64,000 nucleotides of DNA from an uncultured Verrucomicrobiae bacterium (GCA_963718565.1 OY970364.1:1472001-1536000); one strand, 5' to 3'; positions 2,370 to 27,271 are shown, counted from the first letter of the stretch. A program made the numbers and translations. The notes: generated by a model not told the origin, from the sequence alone.

Positions 2370-3980
2370 ATGGCGGGAAGCTCTTTTTATAAACAAAATA
2401 CGATGCCCGATCTCATTTCAGGAGAAGAGAATTTTCCTCTTCCGACGATGATCGGCCCTTACAAAATTGAAAGCCTCTTTAGTAAAGGAGGCATGAGTCT
2501 GCTTTATCTCGGATTGGACCCGGAAACAAAAAAGGCCCTCATCATCAAAGTCCTCTCTCCTTCCCATGTCACGCATCCCGAAGCCGTAGAGAGGTTTTTA
2601 AAAGAAGCCAAAGTCATCGCGCTCAGCAATCATCCCAATATCGTCAAGCTCTATGGGCAAGGAGAATGGGAAAAAGGCCTTTATATCGCAATGGAGCTGA
2701 TCCATGGCATTTCGCTCAAGCAGTTTATTATGCAGCAATCGCTCTCGATGCGACGCGCCTTGGAAATTATCTTACAGGTCGCCTTTGCTCTTCTGCATTT
2801 GCACTCCCATGGAGTCATTCATCGCGATTTGAAACCCGAGAATATTTTGATCACAGAAGAAGGAGAAGTTAAAGTCATTGATTTTGGCATTGCCCAATTG
2901 CACGAGGAAAAAGAAAACCAGACTTCATCCTCGGGTAAATTTTTGGGCACCCCCAATTACATGAGCCCCGAACAAAAAGAAGATCCGTTTTCTGTCACTT
3001 TCGCAACGGACATTTATTCTCTCGGCGTAACTCTTTATGAGCTTGTCTTGGGGAAATTAAGTTACGGAATCATTCATTTGACAGCCCTCCCTAAAGGACT
3101 CAAAAAAATCGCCGCTAAAACCTTGGCGGTCTCTGTAAAGGAGCGTTATCAAACGATCTCCGAATTTATTCACGACATTTCTCAATATTTGCAATCTGGA
3201 GACCTTGAAAAGGAGCGCCCTGGGATAGACCAGGTCAAAGAATTGAATGAAAGGATCCAAAAGGCAAACCTCAGCCTTTCCCCGATCGCCCTTCCTACAT
3301 GGCCCCAAATCGATCTGGGGATCACGAAAGGTCGAGGCATGCAACAGCTCGGGCTTTATTACGATTTCTTCCGCCTTCCCAATAATACTTTTCTCATGTT
3401 TATCGCCACCACCAAGTCCGCTGCGATCGAGTCTGCCGTATCGATTGCTACCTTGCGTGGCATGATTCGGATGCACCTCCATGAATTTACACCTTCGAGC
3501 AGAGCCATTTTCAAGCCCCTAGCATTTACAGAAACATTGAACCGCATAGTCTGCGAAGACACATCTGGAGAAAAATTCGCCTTGAATGCTGTGCTATTAG
3601 ACCCCTTGCAAGACCGCGTCACATACATCTCCTGCGGATTCAATTCACTTGCGCACATTCCTCAAGGGCAAACCAAACCCCGGAAGCTCGCCTCAGAAAA
3701 TGACCTGCTTGGGACCTCTGTAACGACGGAATTTTCCGAAACCACCGATAACTGGAATGCAGGTGATATTCTTATCCTGCATTCTCTGGCACTGCCTCCT
3801 GAGGCCAAGCCCCAAGAAAAGGAGCAATGGGACCAGGCGATGAGTGAGGCGGCCACTGAAAATCTCCTTTTGTCCGCTCAAAGGCAGTCTGAGGCCATAT
3901 TTAAAAAAATTTCTACCACTTCCGCTTTTGCATTGATCCTCTATCCTAAAGCCTTGATCTCGATTCAAAGAATTATTTAA
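2370..3980 (+). CDS. pkn5: Pkn5-like Ser/Thr protein kinase with degenerate C-terminal SpoIIE/PP2C-like domain
   Basis: KGGMS, HRDLKPEN, DFG, GTPNYMSPEQ, DIYSLG motifs; follows cdsQ. Confidence 0.85.
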   Translation: MAGSSFYKQNTMPDLISGEENFPLPTMIGPYKIESLFSKGGMSLLYLGLDPETKKALIIKVLSPSHVTHPEAVERFLKEAKVIALSNHPNIVKLYGQGEWEKGLYIAMELIHGISLKQFIMQQSLSMRRALEIILQVAFALLHLHSHGVIHRDLKPENILITEEGEVKVIDFGIAQLHEEKENQTSSSGKFLGTPNYMSPEQKEDPFSVTFATDIYSLGVTLYELVLGKLSYGIIHLTALPKGLKKIAAKTLAVSVKERYQTISEFIHDISQYLQSGDLEKERPGIDQVKELNERIQKANLSLSPIALPTWPQIDLGITKGRGMQQLGLYYDFFRLPNNTFLMFIATTKSAAIESAVSIATLRGMIRMHLHEFTPSSRAIFKPLAFTETLNRIVCEDTSGEKFALNAVLLDPLQDRVTYISCGFNSLAHIPQGQTKPRKLASENDLLGTSVTTEFSETTDNWNAGDILILHSLALPPEAKPQEKEQWDQAMSEAATENLLLSAQRQSEAIFKKISTTSAFALILYPKALISIQRII

Positions 3981-4028
3981 TCAAAAAAAATAATATATAG
4001 TATTAAAAATTCTATTAAATATTAGAAA

Positions 4029-4057
4029 TTGAATCTATTTTTTATTTATAATATAAT
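4029..4057 (+). promoter_or_regulatory. sigma66/sigma70-type promoter of F-box/WD40 gene 1
   Basis: TTGAAT-N17-TATAAT; same module before paralogues (6631, 8326, 27300 minus). Confidence 0.7.
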
Positions 4058-4136
4058 TGGTTTTTAATAATTTGCTTTTTTATTAAAAGTAATCATTAGA
4101 AAATAAATAAAAAACTTAAATTAAGGATATAAATTT

Positions 4137-5663
4137 ATGACCTCATTTATCTCTGATTCAAACAAGCATGTCGTTGAGATACCACAGGACAACACCCTAG
4201 CCTTAAGTAGGGTATACAGAGATCCGCTGTCCATCAATGAATTCCCTGAAGAGATTCTCTCTCTCTTTTTTGAAAACTTATCTCTACAGGGAATTAGAGC
4301 ATGTCAATTGACCTGTAAAGAATGGAACTGGATTCTAAATAATAGTGATAATGATGGTTTGTGGGGGAGGTTACTTAAAAATCATTTTCCAAATGTAGAT
4401 GTAGATAGAGGCGTTGTTGAAAATTTTCATAGCGCTTACAAGACCCTCCACAATTTTTATTCAAACCTTATAAAAGGAGTGTGCGCTCCGTACGTCCTTC
4501 AAGGGCATGAAAACACGATTTCCTGCCTTGCCGTTGATGTTAATGTTGATAGCAGGCAACTCTTTTCAGCCTCTTTTGATCGCACCATCAAGGCCTGGGA
4601 TGCACAAACAGGGAAATGCTCCAAAACTCTTCAAGGACATACAGGCCTGGTTTACCGCCTTGTTGCTGATGCGAAGAGCAGGCAACTCTTTTCAGTCTCT
4701 TTGGATGGCACCTTCAAGGTCTGGGATACACGAACAGGAAAATGCCGCGGAACTCTTCAAGGGCATGAAGGCATTGTTTACTGCTTTACCGCTAATGTGA
4801 AGAGAGGGCTACTCTTTTCAGGCTCTTCGGATCGCACCATCAAGGTCTGGGATATACAAACGGGTAAATGCCTCAGAACTCTTCAAGAAGACCGTACAGA
4901 CACGGGTTACTGCCTTGTCGTTGAGGACAACAGCGGGCTACTCTTTTCCGCAAACTCTTCGGGTTACACCATCACGGTCTGGGACATACAAACGGGTAAA
5001 TACCTCAGAACTCTTCAAGGACATGAGTACACGGTTACTAGCCTTGCCGTTATTGAAGGGCAACTTTTTTCAGGCTCTTCGGATCGCACCATCAAGGTCT
5101 GGGACATACAAACGGGTAAATACCTCAGAACTCTTCACGGGCATACAAGCGCGGTTACCTGCCTTGCCGTTGATGACAAGCGCAGGGTACTCTTTTCAGT
5201 CTCTTTGGATCGCACCATCAAGGCCTGGGATACACGAACGGGTAAATGCATCGGAACTCTTCAAAGGCATGAAAACACGGGTTACTGTTACAGCCTTGCC
5301 GCTATTGACGGGAAACTTTTTTTGTTGAATATGAATGCTGATAACAACATGAATATGAATGCTGATAACAACATCGAGCTCTGGGACCTTACAGCAAGCC
5401 AGGACACGATTTTGCAACAGATGGCGAACATGCTAAAAACGGGAACAACACCGCAAATCCAGCGCGCTCTTAACCTATTTTCAAGAATGCCAAACAAGGT
5501 AAAAAATGCAATCTACGGAGAGTTGTATGATATTTGTAAGCCTTTCGCTAATGATTATTGGGGATGCGGAGAGCATGCTTTTCTCAACCAATATGGGCAA
5601 AGTTCTGAGCCTCATCAACAAGCCAAAGCGATTGAAAGTTATTTAAATAAACAAAAACCTTAA
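4137..5663 (+). CDS. F-box/WD40-repeat protein 1 (putative T3SS effector)
   Basis: F-box FPEEILSLFFENL..IRACQLTCKEW; about 7 GH..WD repeats; conserved C-terminal domain. Confidence 0.9.
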   Translation: MTSFISDSNKHVVEIPQDNTLALSRVYRDPLSINEFPEEILSLFFENLSLQGIRACQLTCKEWNWILNNSDNDGLWGRLLKNHFPNVDVDRGVVENFHSAYKTLHNFYSNLIKGVCAPYVLQGHENTISCLAVDVNVDSRQLFSASFDRTIKAWDAQTGKCSKTLQGHTGLVYRLVADAKSRQLFSVSLDGTFKVWDTRTGKCRGTLQGHEGIVYCFTANVKRGLLFSGSSDRTIKVWDIQTGKCLRTLQEDRTDTGYCLVVEDNSGLLFSANSSGYTITVWDIQTGKYLRTLQGHEYTVTSLAVIEGQLFSGSSDRTIKVWDIQTGKYLRTLHGHTSAVTCLAVDDKRRVLFSVSLDRTIKAWDTRTGKCIGTLQRHENTGYCYSLAAIDGKLFLLNMNADNNMNMNADNNIELWDLTASQDTILQQMANMLKTGTTPQIQRALNLFSRMPNKVKNAIYGELYDICKPFANDYWGCGEHAFLNQYGQSSEPHQQAKAIESYLNKQKP

Positions 5664-5759
5664 TGGTTAGGATCATTTTTTTGTTTATAATATAATTGGT
5701 TTTGAAAAATTTGCTTTTTATTAAAAGTAATCATTAGAAAAATAAATAAAAAAACTTAA

Positions 5760-6234
5760 CCCAAGTTCGCGGATTTCCCAGAGGAGCTATGCAAATTCGT
5801 CACTACATCTTGAATTAAACGAGTGTTTTATGACCTCTGAGAATTGAAGACGATAATCCCAGCGCCCTGTAAATCTCTATTTGCTCGCCTTCTGCCTTTG
5901 TAGTGCTGCGGTGGTAGAGCACCCTGCCTTCTGTTGTCTTGGCCCGCACAGTTACTCGGACTCGAGTAATCATGATATTACGTATTGTCTGCCACAAATA
6001 GTTTATCCCTTTTCGAACGGTCTGTCTTGAGGGTTTTCCTTATATACATGCCCTCAGATCTTACCGATGGATCGAATTTATTTGAACATGAAATAATTAT
6101 TTTACAAATTTTCAGTCACTACAAATTCGCAAAAACAGCAAAGCACTAAAAATAAGGGACTTACGAAAGCAAAGGTTGATTTTAATGTTGTTGATTATGA
6201 GGGACTTAGGTCAGCTCTCTCGGGCGAACTTGGG
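5760..6234 (-). mobile_element. Internally deleted IS1634-family derivative (475 bp, both ends kept)
   Basis: TIR CCCAAGTTCGC/GCGAACTTGGG; 5760-6017 matches 25202-25459 and 6017-6234 matches 27051-27268. Confidence 0.93.
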
Positions 6235-6615
6235 CTAGAACATCAGCAGCTTGGGTTTGGGAAAGAGCTTTTTGCTTTAGCTTAGAAAAGACTTCAGCCC
6301 TATCTAATTCTTTGGTACTCATAGTGATAATCCTCTCCATTTAATTACCTCCTTAGTAATGAATACCTTACTACCAGGAGAGGACATTCAGGAGGGGACA
6401 TTTCTATTTAACGCAAAGCGGACATTTCAAAAAAACGCTTATACCCAAACAACTTGAAAAATTGGTTTTTGACTGCGTCGGCAGCCATTGCCTTTGAGCC
6501 CGCGTCCATCGCACAACTTATTCAAGTTGTGCTGCTTCCGCGCCGGCTTCGCCTGCCTCAAATGCAGGGCGCCTTCTTGCCAAATTCCCAGTTTTTCAAG
6601 TTGTTTGGGTATACA
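6235..6615 (-). mobile_element. Left-end remnant of an IS481/IS1202(ISNCY)-like element, with a MITE inserted in its terminus
   Basis: Minus-strand MERIITMSTKELDRAEVFSKLKQKALSQTQAADVL (HTH-like transposase start); three AATGTCC subterminal repeats; TGTAAGCG end restored after removing the MITE. Confidence 0.6.
6442..6611. mobile_element. 170-bp palindromic MITE family A (TA target duplication)
   Basis: TIR TACCCAAACAACTTGAAAAA/TTTTTCAAGTTGTTTGGGTA flanked by TA; core homologous to 58820-58989. Confidence 0.85.
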
Positions 6616-6630
6616 ATTAAATATTAGAGA

Positions 6631-6659
6631 TTGAATCTATTTTTTATTTATAATATAAT
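6631..6659 (+). promoter_or_regulatory. sigma66-type promoter of F-box/WD40 gene 2
   Basis: TTGAAT-N17-TATAAT identical to 4029-4057. Confidence 0.7.
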
Positions 6660-6728
6660 TAGTTTTTAAGAATTTGCTTTTTTATTAGAAAATAAATAAA
6701 AAAAAACCTTAAATGAAGGATGTAAATT

Positions 6729-8024
6729 ATGAGCTTATCTATCTCTGATTCAAACAACGTCGGTAAGATACCGCACAATGCTCTAGCCTTAGATGAGTCG
6801 CCCTTTGATTACCTCCCTCAAGAGATAATCCGTTTCATTTTTGAACTATCACTCCTATCAGGAATTAGAGCAGGTAAATTGACCTGTAAAGAATGGAACC
6901 GGATTCTAGATGATAATAATTATGATTTATGGAAGAGGTTATTTAAAAATCATTTTCCAAGTGTAGATGTAGATAATGATTTATGGAAGTGGTTATTTAA
7001 AAATCATTTTCCAAGTGTAGATGTAGATATAAACACTATTGATATTGAAAGTTTTCATAGTGTTTACAAAACCTTCTATAATCTTTATTCAAATCTTGCA
7101 AAAGAAGCGTATGCTCCACAGACTCTTCAAGGGCATAGAGCCGTGATTTACCGCCTTGCCGTTAATCCTAACAGCAGCCAACTCTTTTCAGCCTCTTCTG
7201 ATGGCACCATCAAGGTCTGGGATACACGAACAGGTGAATGCCTCAGAACTCTTCAAAGGCAGGAAGGCAGCGGCGACTGCCTTGCCTTTGATGTTAATGG
7301 AGAACAATTCTTTTCAGCCCCTTCTGATGACACCATCAAGGCCTGGAATACACAAACGGGTAAATGCCTCGGAATTCTTGAAGGGCTTGAAGGCCGGGTC
7401 TACAGCCTTGCCGTTGGTGATAGCGGGAAAGTCTTTTTAAGCTCTTCTGATCATACCATCAAGGCCTGGGATACACAAACGGGTAAATGTCTCAGAACTC
7501 TTCAGGAGGGGCATGAAGGCGGGGTTCCCCGCATTTGGAATCCCCGCCTTGCCCTTAATGCTAAGGGTGAGAAGCTCTTTTCAAGCTCTTGTAATTGCAC
7601 CATCGAGGTCTGGGATACACGAACGGATAAACGCCTCGGAACTCTTGAAGGGCATAAAAAGATGGTTTACTGCCTTGCCTTTGATGCTAATAGGAAGCAA
7701 CTCTTTTCAGCCTCTTTTGATGGCATCATCAAGGTCTGGGATACAGAAACGGGTGAATGCTTCAGAACTCTTCAAGGGCATGGAGGCGTGGTTTACCATC
7801 TTGTCGTTGATCCTAGCAGCGGGCTACTCCTTTCATGCTCTTGGGATGACACTATCAAGGTCTGGGACATACAAACGGGTAAATGCCTCGGAACTCTTCA
7901 AGGGCGTGTGGGAGATTATTCCTGCGTTGCCTTTATTGGCGGGAAACTTTTTTTTGCAGGTATTGGTGGTAACAACATCAATGTCTGGGACTTTACAGCA
8001 GCAAGCCAGGACACAATTTTGTAA
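6729..8024 (+). CDS. F-box/WD40-repeat protein 2, lacking the family C-terminal domain
   Basis: F-box LPQEIIRFIF..LTCKEW; about 7 WD40 repeats; stops at ASQDTIL just before the duplicated pkn5 fragment. Confidence 0.88.
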   Translation: MSLSISDSNNVGKIPHNALALDESPFDYLPQEIIRFIFELSLLSGIRAGKLTCKEWNRILDDNNYDLWKRLFKNHFPSVDVDNDLWKWLFKNHFPSVDVDINTIDIESFHSVYKTFYNLYSNLAKEAYAPQTLQGHRAVIYRLAVNPNSSQLFSASSDGTIKVWDTRTGECLRTLQRQEGSGDCLAFDVNGEQFFSAPSDDTIKAWNTQTGKCLGILEGLEGRVYSLAVGDSGKVFLSSSDHTIKAWDTQTGKCLRTLQEGHEGGVPRIWNPRLALNAKGEKLFSSSCNCTIEVWDTRTDKRLGTLEGHKKMVYCLAFDANRKQLFSASFDGIIKVWDTETGECFRTLQGHGGVVYHLVVDPSSGLLLSCSWDDTIKVWDIQTGKCLGTLQGRVGDYSCVAFIGGKLFFAGIGGNNINVWDFTAASQDTIL

Positions 8025-8030
8025 GAGACA

Positions 8031-8277
8031 GATAACTGGAATCCAGGTGATATTCTTAATCCTGCATTCTGCTGGCACTGCCTCCTAAGGCCAAGCCCTA
8101 AGAAAAGGAGCAATGGGATCAGGCGATGAGTGAGGCGGCCACTGAAAATCTCCTTTTGTCCGCTCAAAGACAATCTTCTGAGCCCATATTTAAAAAAAAA
8201 TTTCTACTATACTGCGCCCGCTTTTGCATTAATCCCCTATGCTAAAGCCTTGATTTCGATTCAAAGAATTATTTAAT
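8031..8277 (+). pseudogene. Duplicated, frameshifted 3' fragment of pkn5
   Basis: Near-identical to 3747-3980, with indels; homology continues through the intergenic region to the ATG at 8434. Confidence 0.92.
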
Positions 8278-8325
8278 CAAAAAAATATAATATATAGCAT
8301 TAAAAATTCTATTAAATATTAGATA

Positions 8326-8354
8326 TTGAATACATTTTTTATTTATAATATAAT
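8326..8354 (+). promoter_or_regulatory. sigma66-type promoter of F-box/WD40 gene 3
   Basis: TTGAAT-N17-TATAAT. Confidence 0.7.
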
Positions 8355-8433
8355 TGATATTGAAAAATTTGTTTTTTATTAAAAACAATCATTATAAAAA
8401 ATAAATAAAAAACTTAAATAAGGATGTAAATTT

Positions 8434-9888
8434 ATGATCCCATCTATCCCTAATTCGAACCCCGTCGTTCTAACCTTAGATAAGGTGCCACCCTTCGAGG
8501 CGGTCCCTCAAGAGATAGTCTCTTTCATTCTTGAAAACTCTTTCATTCCTGAAAAATCACTTCTGCCAGGAGTTGTAGCATGTCGATTGACCTGTAAACA
8601 ATGGAACCAGATTCTAAATAATAATGGCCTGTGGGAGAGCTTACTTAAAAATCATTTTCCAAGTGTAGATGTAGATACAAAAACTGTTAAAAATTTTCAT
8701 AATGCTTACCAGGCTTTCCATAATCTTTATTTAAATCTCCCAAAAGAAGTGTATGCTTTGGGCATCCTTCAAGGGCATACAGATACGGTTTACTGCACTG
8801 CCGTCACTGGCAACCTACTCTCTTCAGGCTGTCGTGATGGTACCATCAAGGTCTGGGATACACGAACGGGTGAATGCCTCAGAACTCTTCAAGGGCATAC
8901 AGACGTGGTTTGCCACATTGCCGTCACTGGCGACCTACTCTTTTCAGGCTCTCGTGATGGTACCATCAAGATCTGGAACATACAAACGGGTAAATGGCTC
9001 GGAGATCTTCAAGGGCATACAAACCCGGTTGACTGCCTTGCCTTTGAGGCTAATAGCGAGCAACTCTTTTCAAGCTCTCTTGATCACACCATCAAGGTCT
9101 GGAATACACGAACGGGTGAATGCCTCAGAACTCTTCAAAGGCTTGGATTCGAGGTTTCCTCCATTGCTGTTAATAGCAAGCGATTCTTTTCATCAGGCTC
9201 TTATAATAACGCCATCAATGATGACGCCATCAATGTCTGGGATACACGAACAGGGGAATGCCTCAAAGCTTTTCAAGGGCATACAAGCAAGGTTTACTGC
9301 CTTACCATTACTGGCAACCTACTCTTTTCAGGCTCTCGTGATGGCGCCATCAAGGCATGGGATACACGAACAGGGGAATGCCTCAGAACTTTTCAAGGGC
9401 ATACAAGCACGGTTTACTGCCTTGCCATTACTGGCAAGCTACTCTTTTCAACCTCTTTGGATCGCACCATCAAGGTCTGGGATACACGAACGGGTGAATG
9501 CCTCGGAACTCTTCAAGAGCATATAGGCAGGATTTCCTGCCTTGCCGTTGATGGCGGGAAACTTTTTTTGACTGCTGATAGTAACAACATCGAGAGGCGA
9601 GACTTGACAGCAAGCCAGGACACGATTTTGGAGGAGATTGCGGGCATATTAAAAACAGGGACGACAGCGCAAGCCATCCAGTGCGCTCTTAACCGATTTT
9701 CGAGGATGTCAAACGGGGTAAAAAATGCAATCTACGGAGAGTTATATAAGATTTGCAAGCCTTTCGCTAATGATTATTGGGGATGCGGAGAGCATGCTTT
9801 TCTCAACCAATATGGGCAAAGTTCTACGCCTGATCAACAAGCCCAAGCGATTGAGAATTATTTGAAGGATCGCTCTTTGAATAAATAA
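8434..9888 (+). CDS. F-box/WD40-repeat protein 3
   Basis: F-box VPQEIVSFIL..CRLTCKQW; about 7 WD40 repeats; family C-terminal domain. Confidence 0.9.
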   Translation: MIPSIPNSNPVVLTLDKVPPFEAVPQEIVSFILENSFIPEKSLLPGVVACRLTCKQWNQILNNNGLWESLLKNHFPSVDVDTKTVKNFHNAYQAFHNLYLNLPKEVYALGILQGHTDTVYCTAVTGNLLSSGCRDGTIKVWDTRTGECLRTLQGHTDVVCHIAVTGDLLFSGSRDGTIKIWNIQTGKWLGDLQGHTNPVDCLAFEANSEQLFSSSLDHTIKVWNTRTGECLRTLQRLGFEVSSIAVNSKRFFSSGSYNNAINDDAINVWDTRTGECLKAFQGHTSKVYCLTITGNLLFSGSRDGAIKAWDTRTGECLRTFQGHTSTVYCLAITGKLLFSTSLDRTIKVWDTRTGECLGTLQEHIGRISCLAVDGGKLFLTADSNNIERRDLTASQDTILEEIAGILKTGTTAQAIQCALNRFSRMSNGVKNAIYGELYKICKPFANDYWGCGEHAFLNQYGQSSTPDQQAQAIENYLKDRSLNK

Positions 9889-9959
9889 AAAACTTAAACC
9901 AAGAACGTAAATTTATGACTTCATTTATCCCTGGTTCAGACAGCGTTGTCGTTGAGATA

Positions 9960-11446
9960 GGTAGTGTAACATTGTTTCTGTAAATTCAATTTTTCAAGAA
10001 AGTGTTTTGATAATTGAAAAAAAAGTTTGAGATCACATTCTCTTAAGTTTAGACAAACAAACAAAAGGAGAGGTTATGATCTCAAACAGCACATATGCCC
10101 CTGTAATCAACGCATTAGTGGAAGAACTCGGACAACAAGGCTTACACGGCCTCAGCGAACTCTTGAGCAGGCTCTTCAATGAATTAATGAAGACCGAACG
10201 AGAGCAGGTTCTTCAAGCTGGTCCATATGAGCGGACAGAGGCTAGAAAAGGTTATGCTAATGGTTTTAAAGATAAAACGGTACAGACTCGTTTTGGAAAA
10301 TTAGAACTCCAGGTTCCACAAACTCGAGAGATTGCATTCTACCCACAGTGCTTAGAGAAGGGAGAGCGATCAGAAAGGGCATTAAAATTGGCAATTGCAG
10401 AAATGTATGTTCAGGGTGTTTCAACGCGGCGAATAGCTCCAATTGCAAAAGAGCTGTGCGGCTTTGATTTGAGTTCAACCCAAGTTTCTCGGGTTGCAAT
10501 GATTCTCGATGAGGAGCTTGAAAAATTCCGCAGGAGAAATTTAGGTCACATCGTTTATCTTTATCTCGATGCCGATTATCAAAAGGTGAGACACGATGGA
10601 CACGTCAGAGACATTGCAGTACTAAAAGCTGTTGGAGTGAACAAAGATGGATTTCGAGAAGTGCTTGGCATTTCATGCAGTTTATCTGAGGCCGAAGTGC
10701 ATTGGAGGACATTCCTGGAAGACTTACTCTCTCGAGGATTAAGAGGAGTAGAAATGGTGATTAGCGATGATCACTCTGGGCTAAAAGCTGCACTAAGGGC
10801 AGTGCTTCCATCGGTTCCTTGGCAGCGCTGTCTTTTTCATCTTGCTCAAAACGCTCAAAGCTATGTCCCAAACACGGCAATGCGAGGAGAAATTGCACAA
10901 GCGGTACGAGATGTTTATCAAGCCTTGAATCAACAAGAGGCTGAAAAACGAGTTAAGGAAACAGTGCAAAGATATGAAAAAAGAGCGCCCAAATTTTGCA
11001 ATTGGTTTGAAATCAATGCAATTGAGGCAATGACATTTTATCATCGGCCAAGAAGGCACTGGAAACAGATAAGGACTGTTAATATTGTTGAAAGGCTTAA
11101 TGGAGAGATTAAGCGGCGAACAAGAGTAGCAAGATTATTTCCCAATGAAGCGTCTTGTGAAAGATTGGTCACTGCCGTGGTATCTGAGATACACGATGAA
11201 TGGATAAGCGGAAAGAGGTATTTGACGTTAGAATAAAATATTGAGGAAAACAACGCTAACACCGATGGAACACTTTTTGTTTAGGGGTGAATTATCTGGC
11301 ATAAAAAAGTGTCAGATTCGAAAAATTTTTCCTCAAAAGCAAAGTAAAAAGCCGAAGCGTCTCTGACGCGAGAGGCCGTTTTTATAGTAAGAAATTGACC
11401 TAAGTGAAGAAGATTTCAGATTTTACAGAAAAATTGTTGCTTGATC
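9960..11446 (+). mobile_element. IS256-family insertion sequence (1487 bp)
   Basis: Imperfect 25-bp TIR ending TTTCTGTAAA; 9-bp TSD GTTGAGATA at 9951-9959 and 11447-11455. Confidence 0.93.
10076..11236 (+). CDS. IS256-family transposase
   Basis: GYANG..TRFG.LELQVP, MYVQGVSTR, LYLDA, VISDDHSGL, WQRCLFH, RTVNIVERLNGEIKRR. Confidence 0.95.
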   Translation: MISNSTYAPVINALVEELGQQGLHGLSELLSRLFNELMKTEREQVLQAGPYERTEARKGYANGFKDKTVQTRFGKLELQVPQTREIAFYPQCLEKGERSERALKLAIAEMYVQGVSTRRIAPIAKELCGFDLSSTQVSRVAMILDEELEKFRRRNLGHIVYLYLDADYQKVRHDGHVRDIAVLKAVGVNKDGFREVLGISCSLSEAEVHWRTFLEDLLSRGLRGVEMVISDDHSGLKAALRAVLPSVPWQRCLFHLAQNAQSYVPNTAMRGEIAQAVRDVYQALNQQEAEKRVKETVQRYEKRAPKFCNWFEINAIEAMTFYHRPRRHWKQIRTVNIVERLNGEIKRRTRVARLFPNEASCERLVTAVVSEIHDEWISGKRYLTLE

Positions 11447-13065
11447 GTTGAGATACCGCAATCGCAGGACAACACTCTACTAGCCTTAAGTGGGGGTATA
11501 CAACTCTCCAACCTCAAATGTGCCGCCCTTCGATGCGCTCCCTCAAGAGATAATCTCTCTCATTCTTAAAAAATTACCTCTGCTAGAAATTGTAGCATGT
11601 CGATTGACCTGTAAACAATGGAACCAGATTCTAAATAATAATGGCCTGTGGGAGAGCTTACTTAAAAATCATTTTCCAAGTGTAGATGTAGATACAAAAA
11701 CTGTTAAAAATTTTCATAGCGCTTACCAGACCTTCCATAATCTTTATTTAAATCTTACAAAAGAAGTGTATGCTTCGCAGATCCTTCAAGGGCATGAAGG
11801 CGGGGTTTTCTGCCTTGCCGTTCATGTTAATGGAGGACTACTCTCTTCAGGCTCTTTGAATGGTATCATCAAGGTCTGGGATACAACAGGTGAATGCCTC
11901 AACACTCTTCAAGGGCATACAAGCGCGGTTCACTGCCTTGCCGTTGATGTTAATAGAGGACTACTCTTTTCAGGCTCTTTTGATGGCACCATCAAGATCT
12001 GGAACATACAAACGGGTGAATGCCTCGGAACTCTTGGGCATGGAAACGCGGTTCACTGCCTTACCGTTGATGTTGATAGCGGGAAACTCTTTTCAGCCTC
12101 TTTGGATGGCACCATCAAGGTCTGGAACATACAAACGGGTGAATTCAAAACTCTTCAAGAGCATGGAAACGCAGTTTACTGCCTTGCCGTTGATGTTAAT
12201 AGCGGGAAACTCTTTTCAGCCTCTTTGGATGGCACCATCAAGGTCTGGGACATACAAACGGGCAAATGCCTCAAAACCTTTCAAGAGCATCAAGAAGGCC
12301 CGGTTCACTGTCTTATCGTTGATGTTAAAAAAGGGCTACTCTTTTCAGGCTCTTTTGATGGCACCATCAAGGTCTGGGACATACAAACGGGTAAATGCCT
12401 CAGAATTCTTGGACATACAGGCACGGTTTACCGCCTTGTCGTTGATGCTAATAGCGGGCTACTCTTTTCAGCCTCTTTGGGCCGCACCATCAAGGTCTGG
12501 GACATACAAACGGGCGAATGCCTCGGAACTCTTCAAGGGCATGAAGGCGATCATTGCTGCATTGCCGTTATCGGCGGGCGACTTTTTGTAGGTACTGGTA
12601 ACAACATCGAGAAGCGAGACTTGACAGCAAGCCAGGACACGATTTTGGAGGAGATTGCGGGCATATTAAAAACAGGGACGACAGCGCAAGCCATCCAGTG
12701 CGCTCTTAACCGATTTTCGAGGATGTCAAACGGGGTAAAAAATGCAATCTACGGAGAGTTATATAAGATTTGCAAGCCTTTCGCTAATGATTATTGGGGA
12801 TGCGGAGAGCATGCTTTTCTCAACCAATATGGGCAAAGTTCTACGCCTGATCAACAAGCCCAAGCGATTGAGAATTATTTGAAGGATCGCTCTTTGAATA
12901 AATAAAAACCTTAATGGTTAGGATCATTTTTCTATTTACAATATAGCCGATTTTAAAAAATTTGCTTTTAAAATAAATTATTTTAATAGTTGAATAAAAA
13001 CTTTAAATTAAGTTATGACCCCATCTATAAATTACTCAGAACGACCTTAAATAAAGGTGTAAATT

Positions 13066-14604
13066 ATGGCCCTATCTATAAATTGTTCAAAAAGTCATTC
13101 AAACAATTTTTTCATTATGCCGGAATGGATTGGAGAGTTGTGGCGAAGCAGCTACTGCATAGCCAACGCAGCCAAAAACCAACTTTTCAACCCATCCCGA
13201 TGTACTATACCGCAGGGCAATAATCCAGCTTTAAAATTATACGTAGATGTACTCTTGCAAATTTTTAAGAACTTATCTGGACAGGACATTAGAACATGTG
13301 AGTTGGTCTGTAAATACTGGAACCGGATGCTAAATGAGGATCGTCTCTGGCAAGGATTACTTGAAAATCACTTTCCAGGTATGAGTCTACATCCAAGCAG
13401 CACTAAAAATTTTCGGAACATTTACCACACTCTTCACACTTTTTATTTAAAACTTACAAAAGGAGTGTATGCCTCGCACACCCTTCACGGACATGGAAAT
13501 ATGGTTTCGTCCCTTGTTTTTTTTGGTGGAGTACTCTTTTCAAGCTCTTGGGATCACACCGTCAGGGCCTGGGACATAAAAACCGGTAAGTGTATAGCGA
13601 TTCTTCAAGGGCATGGGAGCTCAGTTTCCTGCCTTGCCGTTTCTGATGATGGGAAACTTCTCTTTTCAGGCTCTTGCGATGGCACAATCAAATTCTGGGA
13701 GATAAAAAAGGTCAAGGATATAAAAACAGGTGAATCTATCAAAACATATGAATGCATCGCCACTCTTCAAGGGCATAGAGGCGCGATTTCCTGTCTTGAC
13801 TTTGCCGATGGGAAGCTCTTTTCAGGCGGCTGTGGAGATAACACCATCAAAGTCTGGGATGTAAAAACCGGTAAGTGCATAGAGGTTCTTCAAGGGCAGG
13901 AAAGTGCAATTTCCTCCCTTAAGCTTGTTGACGGGAAACTCTTTTCGGGTTCCCGGAATGGCACAATCAAAATCTGGGATATAAAAACAGGTAAATCCCT
14001 AGCGACTTTTCAGGCGCATACACAGCAGATTTTTCATCTTGCCTTTGCTGACGGTAAACTCTTTTCAAGCTCTTACAATGATGGAAATGAAATCAAGGTT
14101 TGGAATATAGAAACCGGTAAGTGTATAGCGACTCTTCGAGGGCATAGAAACTCCATTTCCGGCCTTATCGTTACTAACGGGAAACTCCTTTCGGGCTCTT
14201 TAGATGACACAATCAAGATCTGGGATATTCAAACAAATGAATGCATAGCGACCCTTCGAGGGTATGGGAGCATGGTTTCGTGTCTTACCTTTGCTAACGG
14301 GAAACTCTTTTTGGGCTCTTTATATAGCCCAATCAAGATTTTGGACTTTGCAGCAGAGTACACAACGATTTTTTATCAAATTGTTGGGCTGTTAAAAACA
14401 GAGGAATCGCAAACCACTCAACAAGCCCTCCAGCGATTTTCAAACATGCCGCCGGCAGCAAAAAGTACAATCTACAAAAAGCTGTATGAGGGATGTAAAG
14501 AAGATACTTCTCACAATCCACTTTGGCAAAGCGCTTCGCCCGCTCGACAAGCTCAAGCGATCATGGATTATTTGAAGGATCAGCCTCTTAAGCTCTCTTC
14601 GTGA
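13066..14604 (+). CDS. F-box/WD40-repeat protein 5 (more divergent)
   Basis: F-box DVLLQIFKNL..CELVCKYW; about 7 WD40 repeats; divergent family C-terminal domain. Confidence 0.88.
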   Translation: MALSINCSKSHSNNFFIMPEWIGELWRSSYCIANAAKNQLFNPSRCTIPQGNNPALKLYVDVLLQIFKNLSGQDIRTCELVCKYWNRMLNEDRLWQGLLENHFPGMSLHPSSTKNFRNIYHTLHTFYLKLTKGVYASHTLHGHGNMVSSLVFFGGVLFSSSWDHTVRAWDIKTGKCIAILQGHGSSVSCLAVSDDGKLLFSGSCDGTIKFWEIKKVKDIKTGESIKTYECIATLQGHRGAISCLDFADGKLFSGGCGDNTIKVWDVKTGKCIEVLQGQESAISSLKLVDGKLFSGSRNGTIKIWDIKTGKSLATFQAHTQQIFHLAFADGKLFSSSYNDGNEIKVWNIETGKCIATLRGHRNSISGLIVTNGKLLSGSLDDTIKIWDIQTNECIATLRGYGSMVSCLTFANGKLFLGSLYSPIKILDFAAEYTTIFYQIVGLLKTEESQTTQQALQRFSNMPPAAKSTIYKKLYEGCKEDTSHNPLWQSASPARQAQAIMDYLKDQPLKLSS

Positions 14605-15568
14605 TGGTGATAACAAGTGCTTGGTCTCCGCTGAAATAGGCGCAAGTTTTAGGGACAGCGATGAAGATCTCTTCCTCATGATAGTCGAGGTCCGGATTTG
14701 TGATGATCTCATTGACAAATTTTTCATCTTGGTATTTAGAAACCGGGCTGCTTAAAAAACACGAAAACCGCGAATTTTCACGCATATGGGATGCCAGACA
14801 CTGATTTAAAAAAGTGAACAGGCGTTCATTAGGGCTTGCGATTGAGGATTTTTTTTCCGATGTTTTCATCAGGATATCCATCTCTCCTTGCGTGATTTTT
14901 CTTGTTCGAACAAGGCCATCGAGGAAGTGCTGAAGCTGCTTTTCTGAAATTTGCGCACGTTCATAAAGCTCCTTGAAGAACCTGGCCAATTGTTGGACTT
15001 GATGCCTCTGATCAAGAGGGATGTCTCGCATCAAACCATGAAGATCCTCATCGGAATATTTGATCTCCGCAAGATCAGGGAAAGTCTTTTCCACTTCTTT
15101 CAGAAGTTGCTCTCCTTTTTTAAGCAAAAACTCGGAGCGCACACTCTCTTCTTGGATCTTTTGCATTTCTTGCCCGCTTTGCAAAGGATAGTCATCGAAA
15201 AAGATCCCATCGAATACTCCTAAATTCGGCAAAGCATGCTGCCAAGTGTCTTCGATAATGATGACGTTGGGATAGCGCCTCGCCCACTCTCTTGCGCGTG
15301 CAGCAACCACAGGATGATATTCGATGATGGTATGGCTCTTGGGATGATAGCTTTGAATACGTTCTGAAGAATAGCCGAGTCCAAATCCGATCTCGAGAAT
15401 ATCGCCAAAGGGTTTCAATGCATCGATGCACGCATGCATGTACGGTTTTTCCCATTCCATCATCACTTGAAATTTTCCGTCTTTGAGCAAAATCTCTTTT
15501 CCTTGCTCATCTTTCTTGTATTCCATCTTGCAATGTGAAAAATCTTGTGTCATCTTGTGAAACTCCAT
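14588..15568 (-). CDS. Class I SAM-dependent methyltransferase, RMT2/GAMT-like
   Basis: VMMEWEKPYM, DILEIGFGLG, HTIIEYHP, FDGIFFDDYP. Confidence 0.8.
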   Translation of the reverse strand: MEFHKMTQDFSHCKMEYKKDEQGKEILLKDGKFQVMMEWEKPYMHACIDALKPFGDILEIGFGLGYSSERIQSYHPKSHTIIEYHPVVAARAREWARRYPNVIIIEDTWQHALPNLGVFDGIFFDDYPLQSGQEMQKIQEESVRSEFLLKKGEQLLKEVEKTFPDLAEIKYSDEDLHGLMRDIPLDQRHQVQQLARFFKELYERAQISEKQLQHFLDGLVRTRKITQGEMDILMKTSEKKSSIASPNERLFTFLNQCLASHMRENSRFSCFLSSPVSKYQDEKFVNEIITNPDLDYHEEEIFIAVPKTCAYFSGDQALVITITKRA

Positions 15569-15731: not shown

Positions 15732-18700
15732 ATGAAAGAATTTCGGAAGCGCTACTGGTATGAAGTTGCCCTATGTGCCTCCTTTTTTTCTCTGATTTAT
15801 TCTCCGATTGCCTACACTGCGGATATTGAGGAGAAACTGATCGCGGCGGATGTTCAGTCAAACATCGATGTCGATAAAGATACCTACACAGTCAATTTCA
15901 ATAATATTTCCATCATCGAATTCATCCGTTTTGCCAGTAAAATCACCAATTTAAACTTTGTTTTCGATGAGGGAGACCTTCAATTCACCGTGACCGTGGT
16001 CTCTGAAGAGGCAATTTCAGCAAAAAATGTGATGTCTGCGCTCTCTCAAGTGCTCCGGATGCACGATCTGATCCTGCTTGAACAAGATGGCAATGTGTTG
16101 ATCACTAAAAGCACAAAAGTCAATCAAATCCCGCCGATTGTCTCCGGTGATCTTCCAGAGTCGAAAGCAAGCAATGCTGCATTGATTACCCGAGTTTTTC
16201 GCCTTAAAAATGCCAATGTGGGCACGGTTGCAGGTATTATCCGTCCCATGTGTTCTGACACTGCTTTAATCGAAGTTTCTGCGGAGACAAGGCAACTAAT
16301 TGTCACAGACGTGACGACAAACGTCGAACAAATTGCCTCATTGCTCACAAGTCTGGATGCCCCGCATACACCGCTTGATGTCGAAACCTATGTGGTCAAG
16401 AATATCCCTCCGCAAGACCTGATCGCAATGACCCAGCAGATTCTGAACCCATTTACTGAGGGCAATCCCCTCCTTTTAGTTCCTCAAAATGACACGAATT
16501 CTATCTTTGTCGTTTCGACTCCCTATTTGATCGAACGCGCGATGACCGTGTTGGAAGATTTGGACATTCCGGCCAAGTCGGTCGTCATCAGCAGACAATC
16601 GATGACGGGCAAAAACATCTTTTTATATCAAACAGTCCATCGCTCCGTCGAGGAATTGATGCGCGAACTGGCGCAGGTCAATCAACAATTGAAAAGCATG
16701 GGCGGGCCTCAGACTTCCCTTCAAATTGCCATTGGCGGTGTACAGCCTATTCAGAATACCAATTCCTTGATGTTCGTTGCGGATTCTGACACAACAGCTA
16801 CCCTCAAAGGGATTTTAGCCTCTCTCGACACCCCTGCCACAGGGAAGACTTCCTTCTACATTTACAAAATTCAAAAAGCGCAACCCTCGCAAATTGAAGA
16901 ATCGCTTAAACTCATGGTCGATCGTCTCGAATCGGCTCCGCGACCCGATGAAGACTTGATCGATGCCATCAATAGCATGCGATGGATCAAAGAGACGAAT
17001 TCGCTCATCTTTACGGGATCAGACCCCGCTCTGAAAAGGTTGCAAGAAATCGTTCCTACCTTTGATGTCAGCCCTTATCAAGCCCTCTCTGGAGCTCAGG
17101 CACAAGCAAAATCGACATTTTTGATTTACAATCCTCAATACCGTTCTGGCGAGGAACTGAGTTCTGAGCTCGAAGATATCGGTAAAAATTTAAAAGATTC
17201 TGAGCTGGCCGATCCTTCTTTTTTGCAAACATTGGATTCCATGAAATGGGTCTCCACTACCAACTCTTTAGTCTTTACCGGGGATCCGCAGTCGATTGAA
17301 AGGGTTAATGTCATTTTGAAATCATTAGATACACCCACCCTTCCCGTCAGTAAAGCTGCACAGGTCTTCATTTATAAGCCGCAATACGTCTCTTCTGACC
17401 AGATCCAAAATGCATTGGATAGTCTTGTCCCTTCTCTACAAGCCACCAATTCCCTTTCTGATCAAAACCTGATTCACGCTATTCAATCGTTGCAGTGGAA
17501 TAGCGAGACGCAATCGTTCATGGTGACCTCTGATGGGACGACCATTGAACGTTTGAAAGGCCTGCTAGCTTCCATTGATACTGGACAAGCGCCTGCAGCT
17601 GCGCTAGCAAAAGGCTTTTTTCTCTACAAGTTGCAATATGCTCATTGCGATACCGTTCTCGAACAGTTAAAAAATATCGCTTCAAAACTCCCTGCAAACA
17701 CGTTACAAAACCAAAATCTCATCCATGCGATCCATAGGACCGAATGCATCAAAGAAAACAACTCTCTTTTGATCACAGGACCATCTGCAGCGATCGAACA
17801 GGAAAAAACACTGATCGCAGAATTCGACTCTTCAACAGGCGCTCCTGGGGGAGCACACTCCTTCTTCATCTACAAACCTAAATATCTTCCTCCAGAAGAA
17901 ATCGAAGCGGCATTAAATGATTTAGCAGAGGATTTACAGGCTTCCGGGCTCAATGACCCCGCCCTTTTTCAAACCTTGAAGACAATGCGCTATGTCCCTC
18001 AGACCAATTCCCTTCTATTCACTGGCAATCAGGAAGGTCTCGATAAAGTTCAAAATCTGATTAACGGAATCGACACAAGTACAGCATTAGGAGCAATCCA
18101 GCGCATTGGCAACCTCACCTTCTTTTTGTATAAGATCCAATACGCCTCTGCCGATAAATTGATTTCTTCTCTAAAAGCTTTTGCACAAGAGCTCACACAA
18201 ACCAACGTCCAAGACAAGCAGCTGGCAGATTCGATTAACAGTGTGAAATGGATTAAGGAGACCAATGCGCTTCTTTTCACAGGCAACAACGACACACTAG
18301 AGCGCATTGAGCAGCTTGTTAAAAAATTCGATATCCCCTCTCTTGGAGGACCAGCTCCTGTAGAGCGCGCTGCGCAGACCTTTGTGATCTACAACCCCAA
18401 GTACTTAAGCGGCGATGAACTCATTTCGATTCTTTGTGACTTCATGCAGAACTTGGTCACTTCGGGCGTTTCCGATCCTGGCTTATTTGATGCGATCAAC
18501 AATCTGAAATGGATTTCCAAAACATCCTCCTTGCTTATTTCCGGAGATAAGCAATCCGTTGAAAAAGTCCAACAATTACTCGTAAAGTTCGATCTTCCAG
18601 GAAAAGAAACGATCACCCCTTCTATTGAATCGATCGATAACACCAGCTTTTTAGTGTATAAATTACAATACCATCCTGGCGACGACATTCAAACAGCTTT

Positions 18701-19826
18701 AAAACAGGTTGCCGTCAGTCTCGGAAAAGGCGCCAGTGCACCGACTGCTCTTGTGGATGCAATCAACTCTTTACAATGGATCCAAGTCACCAATTCTCTG
18801 CTCTGCTCCGGCCAACAAGATGTTCTTGTAAAGCTCAAAGATTTAATTCAAAATCTGGATGTCCCTTTGCGCCAAGTCTTCATCGAAGTTCTCATTATCC
18901 AAACTTCACTGACAAATTCTCAGGATTTTGGGCTCATGTGGGGCGGGCAAGCGCAATACTTTAACAAAGCGACTTTGGGGGGCGGCAATTTTCCCACGAC
19001 CCAAAATAGTGGAAGTGGCAACCCTACACCTGGAATTGCATTTCCTGCCACCTTACAAGGGATCAATACGACCAATACACCCAAAGGTGCACAGGTTCCT
19101 TTCATTCAAGGATTTGATCTTGGAGTCATCGGTGACATCATTATGAATAAGGGAAGGTCGTTCATTTCTTTAGGCGCTCTTGTGGATGCCCTTCAGGTCG
19201 ATCTAGACTCCACGATCCTTTTAAATCCTAAAATTATCACCCAAGATAACCGCCAGTCGACAGTTTTTGTGGGAACCAATGTTCCTTATACGGGTTCGCT
19301 TGTTCAAAACACTTCTAATAATACAACGACGACCTCTAACATTGAATACCGCGATGTCGGAATGAGCTTAACAATCACACCCATTCTCGGCGATGGTGAT
19401 GTCATCACCTTAGATATTGTCAATGACATTTCACAAGTCGTTCAGGCGGCTTCCAACACAAATAGTCAAGTTCTGACGGGGATCACGACTAGCCATGCTC
19501 ATATGGAAACGCGTGTTCACGTCCCCGATAATTATTTTGTCGCCTTAAGTGGAATGATCGACGATAGCAAAACTCACTTCAAATCGAGTATTCCCTGCTT
19601 GGGGGGTATCCCCATTATTGGACTCTTTTTTAGCGAAACCGATCGTGTGGCCAACAAACAAAATGTGATCATTTTTGTACGGCCACAAATTGTTAAAACT
19701 TATGCGCAATACAAGCAAATCACAGAACATCAAGAATGGCTATATAAAGATGTTGCACGTCTTCAAATGTTGAAAGAGACATTCGACGAAGGCATTGACT
19801 TTGTCAAAGTTCCCGAGAACGAGTGA
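15732..19826 (+). CDS. sctC: T3SS secretin CdsC/SctC with expanded periplasmic N-domain repeats
   Basis: Signal peptide; N0 YTVNFNNISIIEFIRFASKITNLNFVFD as in chlamydial CdsC; secretin domain QVFIEVLI..P.IITQDN..IEYRDVG..SSIPCLGGIPIIG; synteny. Confidence 0.88.
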   Translation: MKEFRKRYWYEVALCASFFSLIYSPIAYTADIEEKLIAADVQSNIDVDKDTYTVNFNNISIIEFIRFASKITNLNFVFDEGDLQFTVTVVSEEAISAKNVMSALSQVLRMHDLILLEQDGNVLITKSTKVNQIPPIVSGDLPESKASNAALITRVFRLKNANVGTVAGIIRPMCSDTALIEVSAETRQLIVTDVTTNVEQIASLLTSLDAPHTPLDVETYVVKNIPPQDLIAMTQQILNPFTEGNPLLLVPQNDTNSIFVVSTPYLIERAMTVLEDLDIPAKSVVISRQSMTGKNIFLYQTVHRSVEELMRELAQVNQQLKSMGGPQTSLQIAIGGVQPIQNTNSLMFVADSDTTATLKGILASLDTPATGKTSFYIYKIQKAQPSQIEESLKLMVDRLESAPRPDEDLIDAINSMRWIKETNSLIFTGSDPALKRLQEIVPTFDVSPYQALSGAQAQAKSTFLIYNPQYRSGEELSSELEDIGKNLKDSELADPSFLQTLDSMKWVSTTNSLVFTGDPQSIERVNVILKSLDTPTLPVSKAAQVFIYKPQYVSSDQIQNALDSLVPSLQATNSLSDQNLIHAIQSLQWNSETQSFMVTSDGTTIERLKGLLASIDTGQAPAAALAKGFFLYKLQYAHCDTVLEQLKNIASKLPANTLQNQNLIHAIHRTECIKENNSLLITGPSAAIEQEKTLIAEFDSSTGAPGGAHSFFIYKPKYLPPEEIEAALNDLAEDLQASGLNDPALFQTLKTMRYVPQTNSLLFTGNQEGLDKVQNLINGIDTSTALGAIQRIGNLTFFLYKIQYASADKLISSLKAFAQELTQTNVQDKQLADSINSVKWIKETNALLFTGNNDTLERIEQLVKKFDIPSLGGPAPVERAAQTFVIYNPKYLSGDELISILCDFMQNLVTSGVSDPGLFDAINNLKWISKTSSLLISGDKQSVEKVQQLLVKFDLPGKETITPSIESIDNTSFLVYKLQYHPGDDIQTALKQVAVSLGKGASAPTALVDAINSLQWIQVTNSLLCSGQQDVLVKLKDLIQNLDVPLRQVFIEVLIIQTSLTNSQDFGLMWGGQAQYFNKATLGGGNFPTTQNSGSGNPTPGIAFPATLQGINTTNTPKGAQVPFIQGFDLGVIGDIIMNKGRSFISLGALVDALQVDLDSTILLNPKIITQDNRQSTVFVGTNVPYTGSLVQNTSNNTTTTSNIEYRDVGMSLTITPILGDGDVITLDIVNDISQVVQAASNTNSQVLTGITTSHAHMETRVHVPDNYFVALSGMIDDSKTHFKSSIPCLGGIPIIGLFFSETDRVANKQNVIIFVRPQIVKTYAQYKQITEHQEWLYKDVARLQMLKETFDEGIDFVKVPENE

Positions 19827-25123: not shown

Positions 25124-25201
25124 AATTTATATCTCTGTGTTAAAGTTTTTATTTTATTTTTCTAATAATTTTGTTTTAATAAAGTAAATTTTCAAGCCTA
25201 A

Positions 25202-27268: not shown

Positions 27269-27271
27269 CTA

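Follow-up and report, generated by a model that had tools for sequence, protein, structure and literature searches.

An F-box/WD40 gene array within a chlamydial type III secretion cluster encodes probable mimics of eukaryotic substrate receptors and bears traces of growth and decay

The 64,000-nt window analysed here (G000:C1:1472001-1536000, from a genome consisting of a single contig of 2,284,058 bp; coordinates are window positions unless marked as genome positions) carries an array of five co-oriented genes, c1 to c5, between a gene for a pkn5-like Ser/Thr kinase and the gene for the type III secretion secretin SctC/CdsC. The genes encode an F-box followed by a WD40 propeller and, except in c2, a C-terminal helical module. 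We consider it probable (roughly 60%) that their products are type III-delivered mimics of the F-box/WD40 (FBXW)-type substrate receptors of eukaryotic Skp1–cullin–F-box (SCF) complexes, and that the family is under both diversification and decay. As the array is surrounded by type III genes, its setting is a chlamydial type III secretion cluster (sctN-O...Q-pkn5...sctC), with which it is co-oriented. Judging from its sequences, the source organism is taken to be an uncultured member of the chlamydial family whose named members are Rhabdochlamydiaceae; kinase homologues sharing 59–65% identity are named 'protein kinase [Rhabdochlamydiaceae bacterium]', and closer ones (79%) carry a 'Verrucomicrobia bacterium' metagenome-assembled genome label.

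Six large open reading frames (ORFs) were found on the plus strand between the kinase gene and the secretin, in the order c1, c2, c3, a transposase, c4 and c5 (Table 1). This agrees with the initial annotation, which had placed five co-oriented F-box/WD40 genes between these two Pfam-supported flanks and a sixth copy, c6, at 23579-25123, where a full-length gene on the minus strand was indeed found. The uniform architecture it described stood in part: the F-box and seven WD40 blades are present in all six copies, but the whole architecture is retained in c1, c3, c5 and c6, and thus among the five array genes in c1, c3 and c5 only. The c2 gene lacks the C-terminal domain and terminates directly after the last blade ('...ASQDTIL'), and c4 is split after codon 15 by an IS256-type insertion sequence (IS). 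Likewise, the short Ser-rich N-terminus was recognized in c1, c2, c5, c6 and the detached c4 fragment, where it is rich in Ser, Thr and Asn, but not in the remainder of c4, which is without its native N-terminus. The first ~20 residues are not hydrophobic and were modelled with low confidence (predicted local distance difference test, pLDDT, 56–74). According to the alignment, the c4 ORF is out of frame with its detached start at a run of G near 11480-11495, which could reflect either a genuine frameshift or an error in sequencing. Other copies carry changes of their own, such as a ~20-aa internal duplication in the linker of c2, a 6-aa insert in the F-box of c3 and an internal duplication in the C-terminal module of c6. 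The N-terminus of c5 has ~30 extra residues containing a short dispersed repeat (38 bp, 13153-13190, in the 5' coding part), with a 33–52-bp stretch matching at least nine other genomic sites at 85–100%, which is probably the remnant of an in-frame palindromic element. Nor is the array uninterrupted, since the IS256-type element (not mentioned in the initial annotation), a 483-bp IS derivative, a 175-bp repeat, a pseudo-copy of the pkn5 end and a 326-aa gene also lie in the interval. With two of five array genes truncated or split (c2 and c4), mobile elements between genes, and further broken copies elsewhere in the genome (e.g. genome 1331373/1331740 and 1654290/1657451), the array is decaying as much as growing.

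All six copies matched the F-box-like family PF12937 with 26.0–46.8 bits (cut-off 24.3), with PF00646 above its cut-off in c4, c5 and c6 only, and all six matched WD40 (PF00400) with E-values of 1e-45 to 1e-59 and contained seven 'WD' blade ends. An AlphaFold2 model of c4, based on 32 aligned sequences, reached a pLDDT of 91.7 and a predicted template modelling score (pTM) of 0.89, and comprised four F-box helices (residues 19-61), a linker helix (75-91), 28 strands forming seven blades, and five helices (382-470). The top Foldseek matches of this model were Fbw7-Skp1 (7t1z_B and 2ovr_B, E ~1e-27), FBXW11-Skp1 (6wnx) and Cdc4-Skp1 (3v7d), and the matches to the Fbw7, FBXW11 and Cdc4 chains had E-values of 1e-24 to 1e-27 over 400–460 columns at 21–28% identity. 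The FBXW-like architecture proposed initially is thus supported by the Pfam domains as well as by the predicted fold. Like Fbw7, beta-TrCP/FBXW11 and yeast Cdc4, the array proteins are predicted to combine an F-box, a helical linker and a WD40 propeller in the same order; they differ in being bacterial gene products of only 21–28% identity with an additional five-helix C-terminal module, in having a region before the F-box that is too short for a dimerisation domain, and in the unusual similarity of the blades inside a single protein (up to 93% at the DNA level). The array proteins were modelled with seven blades, the number found in beta-TrCP; Fbw7 and Cdc4 have eight. At the sequence level, the best match in the PDB was 2ymu, a cyanobacterial protein with highly repetitive WD40 repeats (E 9.5e-95), followed by designed consensus propellers and then Fbw7 (1.4e-65). 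No Skp1 domain was found in this genome in searches run without a positive control, in line with the expectation that the bacterium lacks its own Skp1.

The shared C-terminal domain of the initial annotation was confirmed in c1, c3, c4, c5 and c6, where the last ~90 residues form a five-helix module. Four of the five modules matched no Pfam family, and the module of c5 gave sub-threshold matches only. Modelled alone, the module had a pLDDT of 90.1, and its search for fold relatives yielded a best E-value of 0.89 with Foldseek and a best Z-score of 7.2 with VIA-align, the latter within the helical-bundle background; an HDOD-domain protein with that Z-score was for this reason discarded as a relative. 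A protein Atlas search with the module returned no usable match, and a complex prediction of a module homodimer gave no support and no verdict. When 1.84 billion representative proteins were scanned with HMMER, 475 contained the module at E ≤ 0.001, often in two to four copies. Among 25 of these that were scanned for domains, ten had a beta-propeller and/or an F-box, one (the metagenomic P0231) a tyrosine-phosphatase domain, and 14 no Pfam family. Weaker matches within this genome included a protein with a microbial poly(ADP-ribose) glycohydrolase (PARG) catalytic domain (genome 808060-810522, L029) and a DUF818 'Chlamydia CHLPS' hydrolase-like protein (genome 541617-542906, L030). A 643-aa ORF with a weak module match (genome 1292158-1294086) was also considered as a phosphatase and rejected, having no Pfam family; the phosphatase link is that of P0231 only. 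Of 400 genomes drawn from across the phylum, 24 matched the module profile. Within the organism's own family the count was 21 of 89 genomes, within its genus 9 of 11, and two genomes of other families also matched. On these sequence matches, the module appears almost confined to this chlamydial family, and it is also joined to other effector-like domains.

The origin of the array can be followed in the window. The 406 bp from the end of c2 to the ATG of c3 (8028-8433) are a copy of 3744-4136, i.e. the 3' end of pkn5 and the spacer between the kinase gene and c1, with 31 substitutions over 391 aligned bases (7.9%) and 17 gap columns. A segment reaching from inside pkn5 to inside a c gene has thus been tandemly duplicated at this site, and c2 is cut short at 8027/8028, where it meets the duplicated pkn5 fragment. 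Segmental duplication in place, within the lineage of this genome, gave rise to the array. The upstream regions of c1, c2 and c3 are homologous, and the TTGAAT-17-TATAAT motif, promoter-like by consensus match alone, recurs at 6631-6659 (c2) and 8326-8354 (c3), 70–80 bp upstream and with 10/12 consensus positions in each case. The copies differ by 18–30% in DNA. The closest pair, c3 and c4, is 81.8% alike and shares identical tracts of 129 and 295 bp despite the overall difference of 18%; such exact tracts within otherwise divergent genes point to later gene conversion. A simple duplication of a two-gene unit (c1 to c3 and c2 to c4) was considered as one possible order of events; it fits the flank homology and the fact that c2 is nearest to c4, but c3 and c4 are now the most alike, owing to conversion.

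Phylogeny was in agreement with a local origin. In a FastTree phylogeny of 121 family members, from which c2 was omitted because it lacks the C-terminal module, c1, c3, c4, c5 and c6 formed a clade restricted to this genome together with one distant copy (genome 1940308), with a Shimodaira–Hasegawa-like support of 98. The copies of two congeners, G221 (n = 17) and G126, each formed clades of their own, and such genome-specific clades indicate that expansion or homogenisation has been species-specific.

The interval between pkn5 and sctC was also compared among relatives, its length being taken as the secretin start minus the kinase end in the 25 relatives that had both genes on one contig, a subset of 88 matching genomes. 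The two genes had initially been described as adjacent in Chlamydia; adjacency holds for some relatives only, and across the 25 the interval ranged from 280 bp to 7,790 bp (0.3 to 7.8 kb) with varied gene content, compared with 11,755 bp here. Eleven intervals, selected as at least 1.1 kb long, were fetched. No F-box/WD40 gene was found in the interval of any of the four congeners in which it was assembled (G092, G126, G221 and G224), where it held at most one 587–616-aa ORF without a Pfam family and/or the 326-aa gene. Cargo in other genera included an F-box-LRR-RING protein (LRR, leucine-rich repeat; G281, L019 1989-3338), a 1468-aa autotransporter (G138, L022 1169-5572), and ORFs of 927 and 984 aa of no clear family (G387, L020). 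The pkn5-sctC interval is thus a variable slot across the family, and an F-box/WD40 array in this position is a peculiarity of this genome. Taken together with the duplicated pkn5 fragment and the genome-only clade, the four congeners uphold the local amplification that had been proposed for the array.

The family itself extends well beyond this site. At the start of contig C16 of G221 (C16:1-40000), ~20 co-oriented genes encoding an F-box, WD40 repeats and the helical module were found within 33 kb; a six-frame search revealed in-frame stops in several of them, and the assembly may show only part of the array. Proteins of several assemblies retain the three-part architecture at 40–50% identity, and some of them are automatically named 'F-box/WD repeat-containing protein'. 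In the genome analysed here, ~23 loci matched the paralogues by tblastn, and Pfam F-box-like matches occurred at 26 places, 20 of them above the cut-off; family-wide, F-box matches were present in 65 of 91 genomes, ranging from 0 to 67 per genome. A pattern search of the genome contigs for related loci with N-terminal alignment gave 17 matches, none of which was confirmed.

Mobile elements have contributed to the present state of the array. The element within c4 belongs to the IS256 family, having a Mutator-type DDE transposase, imperfect inverted repeats (20 nt, 85%, at 9968-9987 and 11419-11438), a 9-bp direct repeat on both sides (GTTGAGATA; the element ends are uncertain by ~2 bp), and multiple genomic copies. 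Members of this family duplicate 8–9 bp of target. Six other full-length copies share 99.6–100% identity with it, in addition to fragments, and this near-identity indicates that the insertion into c4 was recent. Another F-box fragment (genome 1357551-1358102) directly abuts a further IS256-type copy (genome 1357988-1359475), which suggests repeated IS insertions into the F-box family. Both halves of the 483-bp derivative between c1 and c2 match at least 20 genomic sites at 97–99.8%, where they lie ~1.85 kb apart, and an identical 483-bp copy is found at genome 822779-823261.

Evolutionary signal in the propellers was assessed by Nei-Gojobori nonsynonymous to synonymous ratios (dN/dS) among c1 to c4, with ~275 WD codons and bootstrap values for P(dN<=dS). 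The WD region gave ratios of 1.29–1.54 (P 0.004–0.087) versus 0.49 in the C-terminal module. Three hotspot columns per blade had been fixed beforehand, namely the position two residues ahead of strand a, the residue that opens strand a, and the one preceding the conserved Asp. These columns gave ratios of 2.6–22 with P(dN<=dS) ≤ 0.0145 in all six pairs, and they were also the columns of highest entropy among well-aligned positions; the non-hotspot WD columns gave 1.13–1.46, with P up to 0.26. Comparison of all 42 blades revealed that the nearest relative of a blade was in the same gene in 21 cases, at the same position in another copy in 12, and elsewhere in nine, so that for 30 of 42 blades it was something other than the same-position blade of another copy. 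Blades 3 and 4 of c4 are 93% identical in DNA. We read these data as recombination-driven shuffling combined with focused change at the predicted binding face, and we consider positive selection on the propellers likely.

Several observations weigh against this reading and against that of actively diversifying receptor mimics. The ratios presuppose positional orthology, an assumption that shuffled blades and gene conversion violate, and the six pairs lack independence. Between the copies, synonymous divergence (0.19–0.30) exceeds that of the duplicated flank (0.079); for c1 and c3, the proportion of synonymous differences (0.24–0.30) is three to four times the non-coding flank divergence. Selection at the protein level alone is insufficient to account for this synonymous excess, which points instead to exchange with other copies by recombination or to conversion of the flank at a later time. 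The three hotspot columns were placed by the canonical top-face positions of WD40 propellers in general and not by the coordinates of the model. The rank of 2ymu above Fbw7 means that the propeller may have a bacterial origin. Finally, with two of five array genes damaged and miniature inverted-repeat transposable elements (MITEs) and IS sequences in the interval, some of the array may be in the process of being lost.

In the mechanism we favour, the short unstructured N-terminus would serve as a type III secretion signal, the F-box as a handle for host Skp1, and the helical linker would join it to a seven-blade propeller with a putative target-binding face. The proteins would be injected by the neighbouring type III system and bind host Skp1, by which the ubiquitination of varying host proteins could be redirected or blocked, and the turnover of copies would reflect an arms race, or drift, with protist hosts. 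An effector role is suggested by the FBXW-like predicted fold, the failure to find a Skp1 domain, the position and co-orientation with type III genes, host association and published secretion signals. The chlamydial phylum is obligately host-associated. As regards the signals, the available text of Domman 2014 (PMC4209131) describes working type III signals, seen in a heterologous assay, for those members tested from the four largest families of chlamydial genes, which contain an F-box or a BTB-box.

The families in that study (NEX1a, NEX2) offer the nearest parallel in chlamydiae: as presented in the available text, they likewise occur in tandem arrays with a copy number that varies between close relatives, follow birth-and-death, and are proposed to be type III effectors. 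Tandem arrangement and lineage-specific expansion also characterize the present family, with five genes in tandem here, ~20 on the G221 contig, and genome-specific clades. The published families, as far as described there, have LRR or tetratricopeptide (TPR) partners and belong to Parachlamydiaceae, whereas the array proteins have WD40 repeats and their own helical module and belong to the Rhabdochlamydiaceae-named family. Since their repeats are WD40 and not LRR or TPR, the array proteins are not members of NEX1 or NEX2, although by analogy they may work like them. The available text of PMC4209131 does not contain 'WD40', and 'WD-40' appears once, in a general sentence on eukaryotes. In the accessible parts of a 2024 review (PMC11323580), F-box and WD40 are listed separately among the repeats of environmental chlamydiae; a Legionella review (PMC7830128) mentions FBXW for eukaryotes only, and a study of Rhabdochlamydiaceae genomics (PMC9723776) has neither 'F-box' nor 'WD40', each in the portion of text available. 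Legionella AnkB (PMC2790608) and Ralstonia GALA (PMC2244805) are, by the text available, also bacterial injected proteins whose F-box engages host SCF (reviewed in PMC7830128), but they have ankyrin or LRR partners, occur as single genes or small families, and in Legionella depend on a different secretion system. A literature search, with subscription journals and supplements outside its reach, found no paper on chlamydial proteins combining F-box and WD40, on the helical module, or on Rhabdochlamydiaceae F-box proteins. F-box expansions in chlamydiae are known; the present one is a further case, distinguished by its FBXW architecture, its own helical module and particularly clear marks of growth and decay.

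A more far-reaching interpretation, which we put forward tentatively, is that the genus runs a diversity generator, in which near-identical blades recombine inside single genes and across the tandem copies, selection acts on the three top-face residues of each blade, and propellers thereby gain new host targets. The helical module would then be shared among effectors to serve their delivery, localisation or docking to the host, and effector genes would repeatedly have landed in the gap between pkn5 and sctC. Highly internally conserved WD40 repeats, shuffled and with variation focused on the binding face, are also a feature of fungal NOD-like receptors, which are without the F-box and the helical module.

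The array could instead be a side effect of mainly non-adaptive birth-and-death in a small population whose genome has active IS elements and repeats prone to recombination, with most copies heading for loss by drift and the excess of amino-acid changes due to relaxed constraint plus shuffling, not to selection for novel targets. Such a process would sit well with the truncated c2, the IS-split c4, the deleted IS derivative and MITE between c1 and c2, the broken copies elsewhere in the genome, and F-box match counts that vary from 0 to 67 among family genomes, as well as with the modest ratios of the non-hotspot WD columns; a non-adaptive contribution was also suggested for the chlamydial families in the available text of Domman 2014 (PMC4209131). 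Against mainly non-adaptive change stand the purifying constraint on the module (0.49), the open frames of 484–514 aa retained in c1, c3, c5 and c6, the concentration of change at the three top-face columns, and the retention of the three-part architecture across several genomes at 40–50% identity, and we regard it as unlikely to be the principal explanation.

Secretion could also serve inhibition, the proteins being decoys that soak up host Skp1, or propellers that shield host proteins without handing them over to SCF. Architecture alone does not separate an adaptor from an inhibitor, and the C-terminal module, which is absent from Fbw7, beta-TrCP and Cdc4 and for which searches found no clear relative, is not needed for the Foldseek alignments of 400–460 columns. 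In FBXW receptors the helical linker keeps F-box and propeller in a rigid arrangement, and its predicted presence here fits productive positioning of substrates; a role as SCF-type adaptors is preferred, and decoys seem rather improbable.

Considerably less probable still are WD40 scaffolds that stay in the bacterium, with the F-box-like helical N-terminus working inside the cell. Highly similar WD40 repeats are common in cyanobacteria and other bacteria, and the cyanobacterial propellers of the 2ymu type have near-identical tandem blades like those of the array, but they are without an F-box or a C-terminal helical module. Against an internal role, the F-box scores above the Pfam threshold in each of the six copies, searches of the genome found no Skp1 partner, the predicted fold corresponds to that of eukaryotic FBXW receptors over the F-box, the linker and the propeller, and the family is confined to an obligately host-associated lineage in which its copy number is highly variable.

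An assembly artefact, in which repeats were wrongly collapsed or expanded, is hardly credible, as the copies differ by 18–30% in DNA and cannot be confused by an assembler, the duplicated pkn5 fragment has substitutions and indels of its own, and fragments at least 99% identical to the window, covering parts of c1, c2, c3, c4 and c5 and including the end of c2 with its downstream region (7855-8181) and the IS/c4 junction (11040-11510), were found in soil and freshwater metagenome runs of two studies (n = 4 runs, with short contigs of low depth that cannot bridge genes, and in which uncovered bins are uninformative). Odd joins did occur in single short metagenome contigs, one from 9756 to 5538 (the c3 module to the c1 3' end) and one from 8841 to 9466 within c3 (a 624-bp skip of about five blades); the joined sites share 39–69 identical letters, which fits de Bruijn graph shortcuts, and the joins are taken as such in preference to real recombinant alleles.

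The flanking genes add further detail to the setting. Genes for SctD, SctN and SctO lie upstream of the window; next come two small F-box genes together with another IS, then a SctQ-like gene and the kinase. The F-box-only genes (288 and 286 aa) and the full IS, with a 608-aa DDE transposase, lie at 8756-9619, 9779-11602 and 11998-12855 of the preceding region (G000:C1:1458001-1472000, L026), flanked by the SctO-like gene and the type III gene that comes next, and constitute a second site of F-box cargo in the cluster. The SpoIIE/PP2C-like domain of the kinase comprises residues 353-516 and is retained in the precomputed Pfam lists of its homologues. The 326-aa gene adjoins sctC in all 11 fetched intervals of relatives at 48–71% identity, and its product contains a Gly-rich stretch, 'EIGFGLG', which resembles motif I of S-adenosylmethionine (SAM)-dependent methyltransferases.

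Table 1 Features of the pkn5-sctC region in window coordinates.
Feature	Position	Strand	Remarks
pkn5-like Ser/Thr kinase with SpoIIE/PP2C-like C-terminal part; left border	2370..3980	+	Pkinase E 1.2e-46, SpoIIE E 3.6e-9
Promoter-like TTGAAT-17-TATAAT upstream of c1	4029..4057	+	10/12 consensus match
c1, full-length: F-box, 7 WD40, C-terminal helical module; 508 aa	4137..5663	+	
Internally deleted IS derivative, 483 bp, between c1 and c2	5755..6237	.	two ends of the ~2.07-kb IS that abuts c6
Dispersed repeat, MITE-like, 175 bp, between c1 and c2	6439..6613	.	at least 5 genomic copies, 99.4–100% identity
c2: F-box, 7 WD40, without C-terminal module; 431 aa	6729..8024	+	
Pseudo-copy of the last ~237 bp of pkn5, between c2 and c3	8028..8276 (end approximate)	+	
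c3, full-length: F-box, 7 WD40, C-terminal module; 484 aa	8434..9888	+	
c4 5' end, detached: ATG and 14 further codons (45 bp), homologous to c1 start	9915..9959	+	
IS256-type element within c4, ~1.49 kb	~9960..11446	+	transposase 10076-11236, PF00872 E 1.2e-108
c4 remainder: F-box, 7 WD40, C-terminal module; 471 aa; internal GTG start, native N-terminus missing	11490..12905	+	
c5, divergent full-length copy; 512 aa	13066..14604	+	
326-aa gene between c5 and the secretin, adjoining sctC	14588..15568	-	no Pfam match
SctC/CdsC secretin, 1364 aa; right border	15732..19826	+	Secretin_N E 2.8e-73, Secretin E 2.6e-35
c6, sixth full-length paralogue; 514 aa	23579..25123	-	3.7 kb past the secretin
Full ~2.07-kb IS abutting c6	25181..27271	-	DDE_Tnp_1 transposase 25257-27083

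If the array proteins are full look-alikes of FBXW receptors, they would imitate, more closely than any other bacterial protein so far, the eukaryotic receptors by which cell-cycle and signalling proteins are controlled. With near-identical blades, variation focused on one face, arrays of five to ~20 genes and a conserved module, the family is tractable for studying how host ubiquitination is retargeted, and its copies offer a naturally occurring set of propellers whose differences fall mainly at residues predicted to make contacts, while the duplicated pkn5 fragment is a rare internal record of array growth. Should the diversity generator prove true, it would by analogy parallel the repeat shuffling thought to operate in fungal immune receptors. 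The array also extends the phenomenon of F-box expansion to a large and little-studied chlamydial family.

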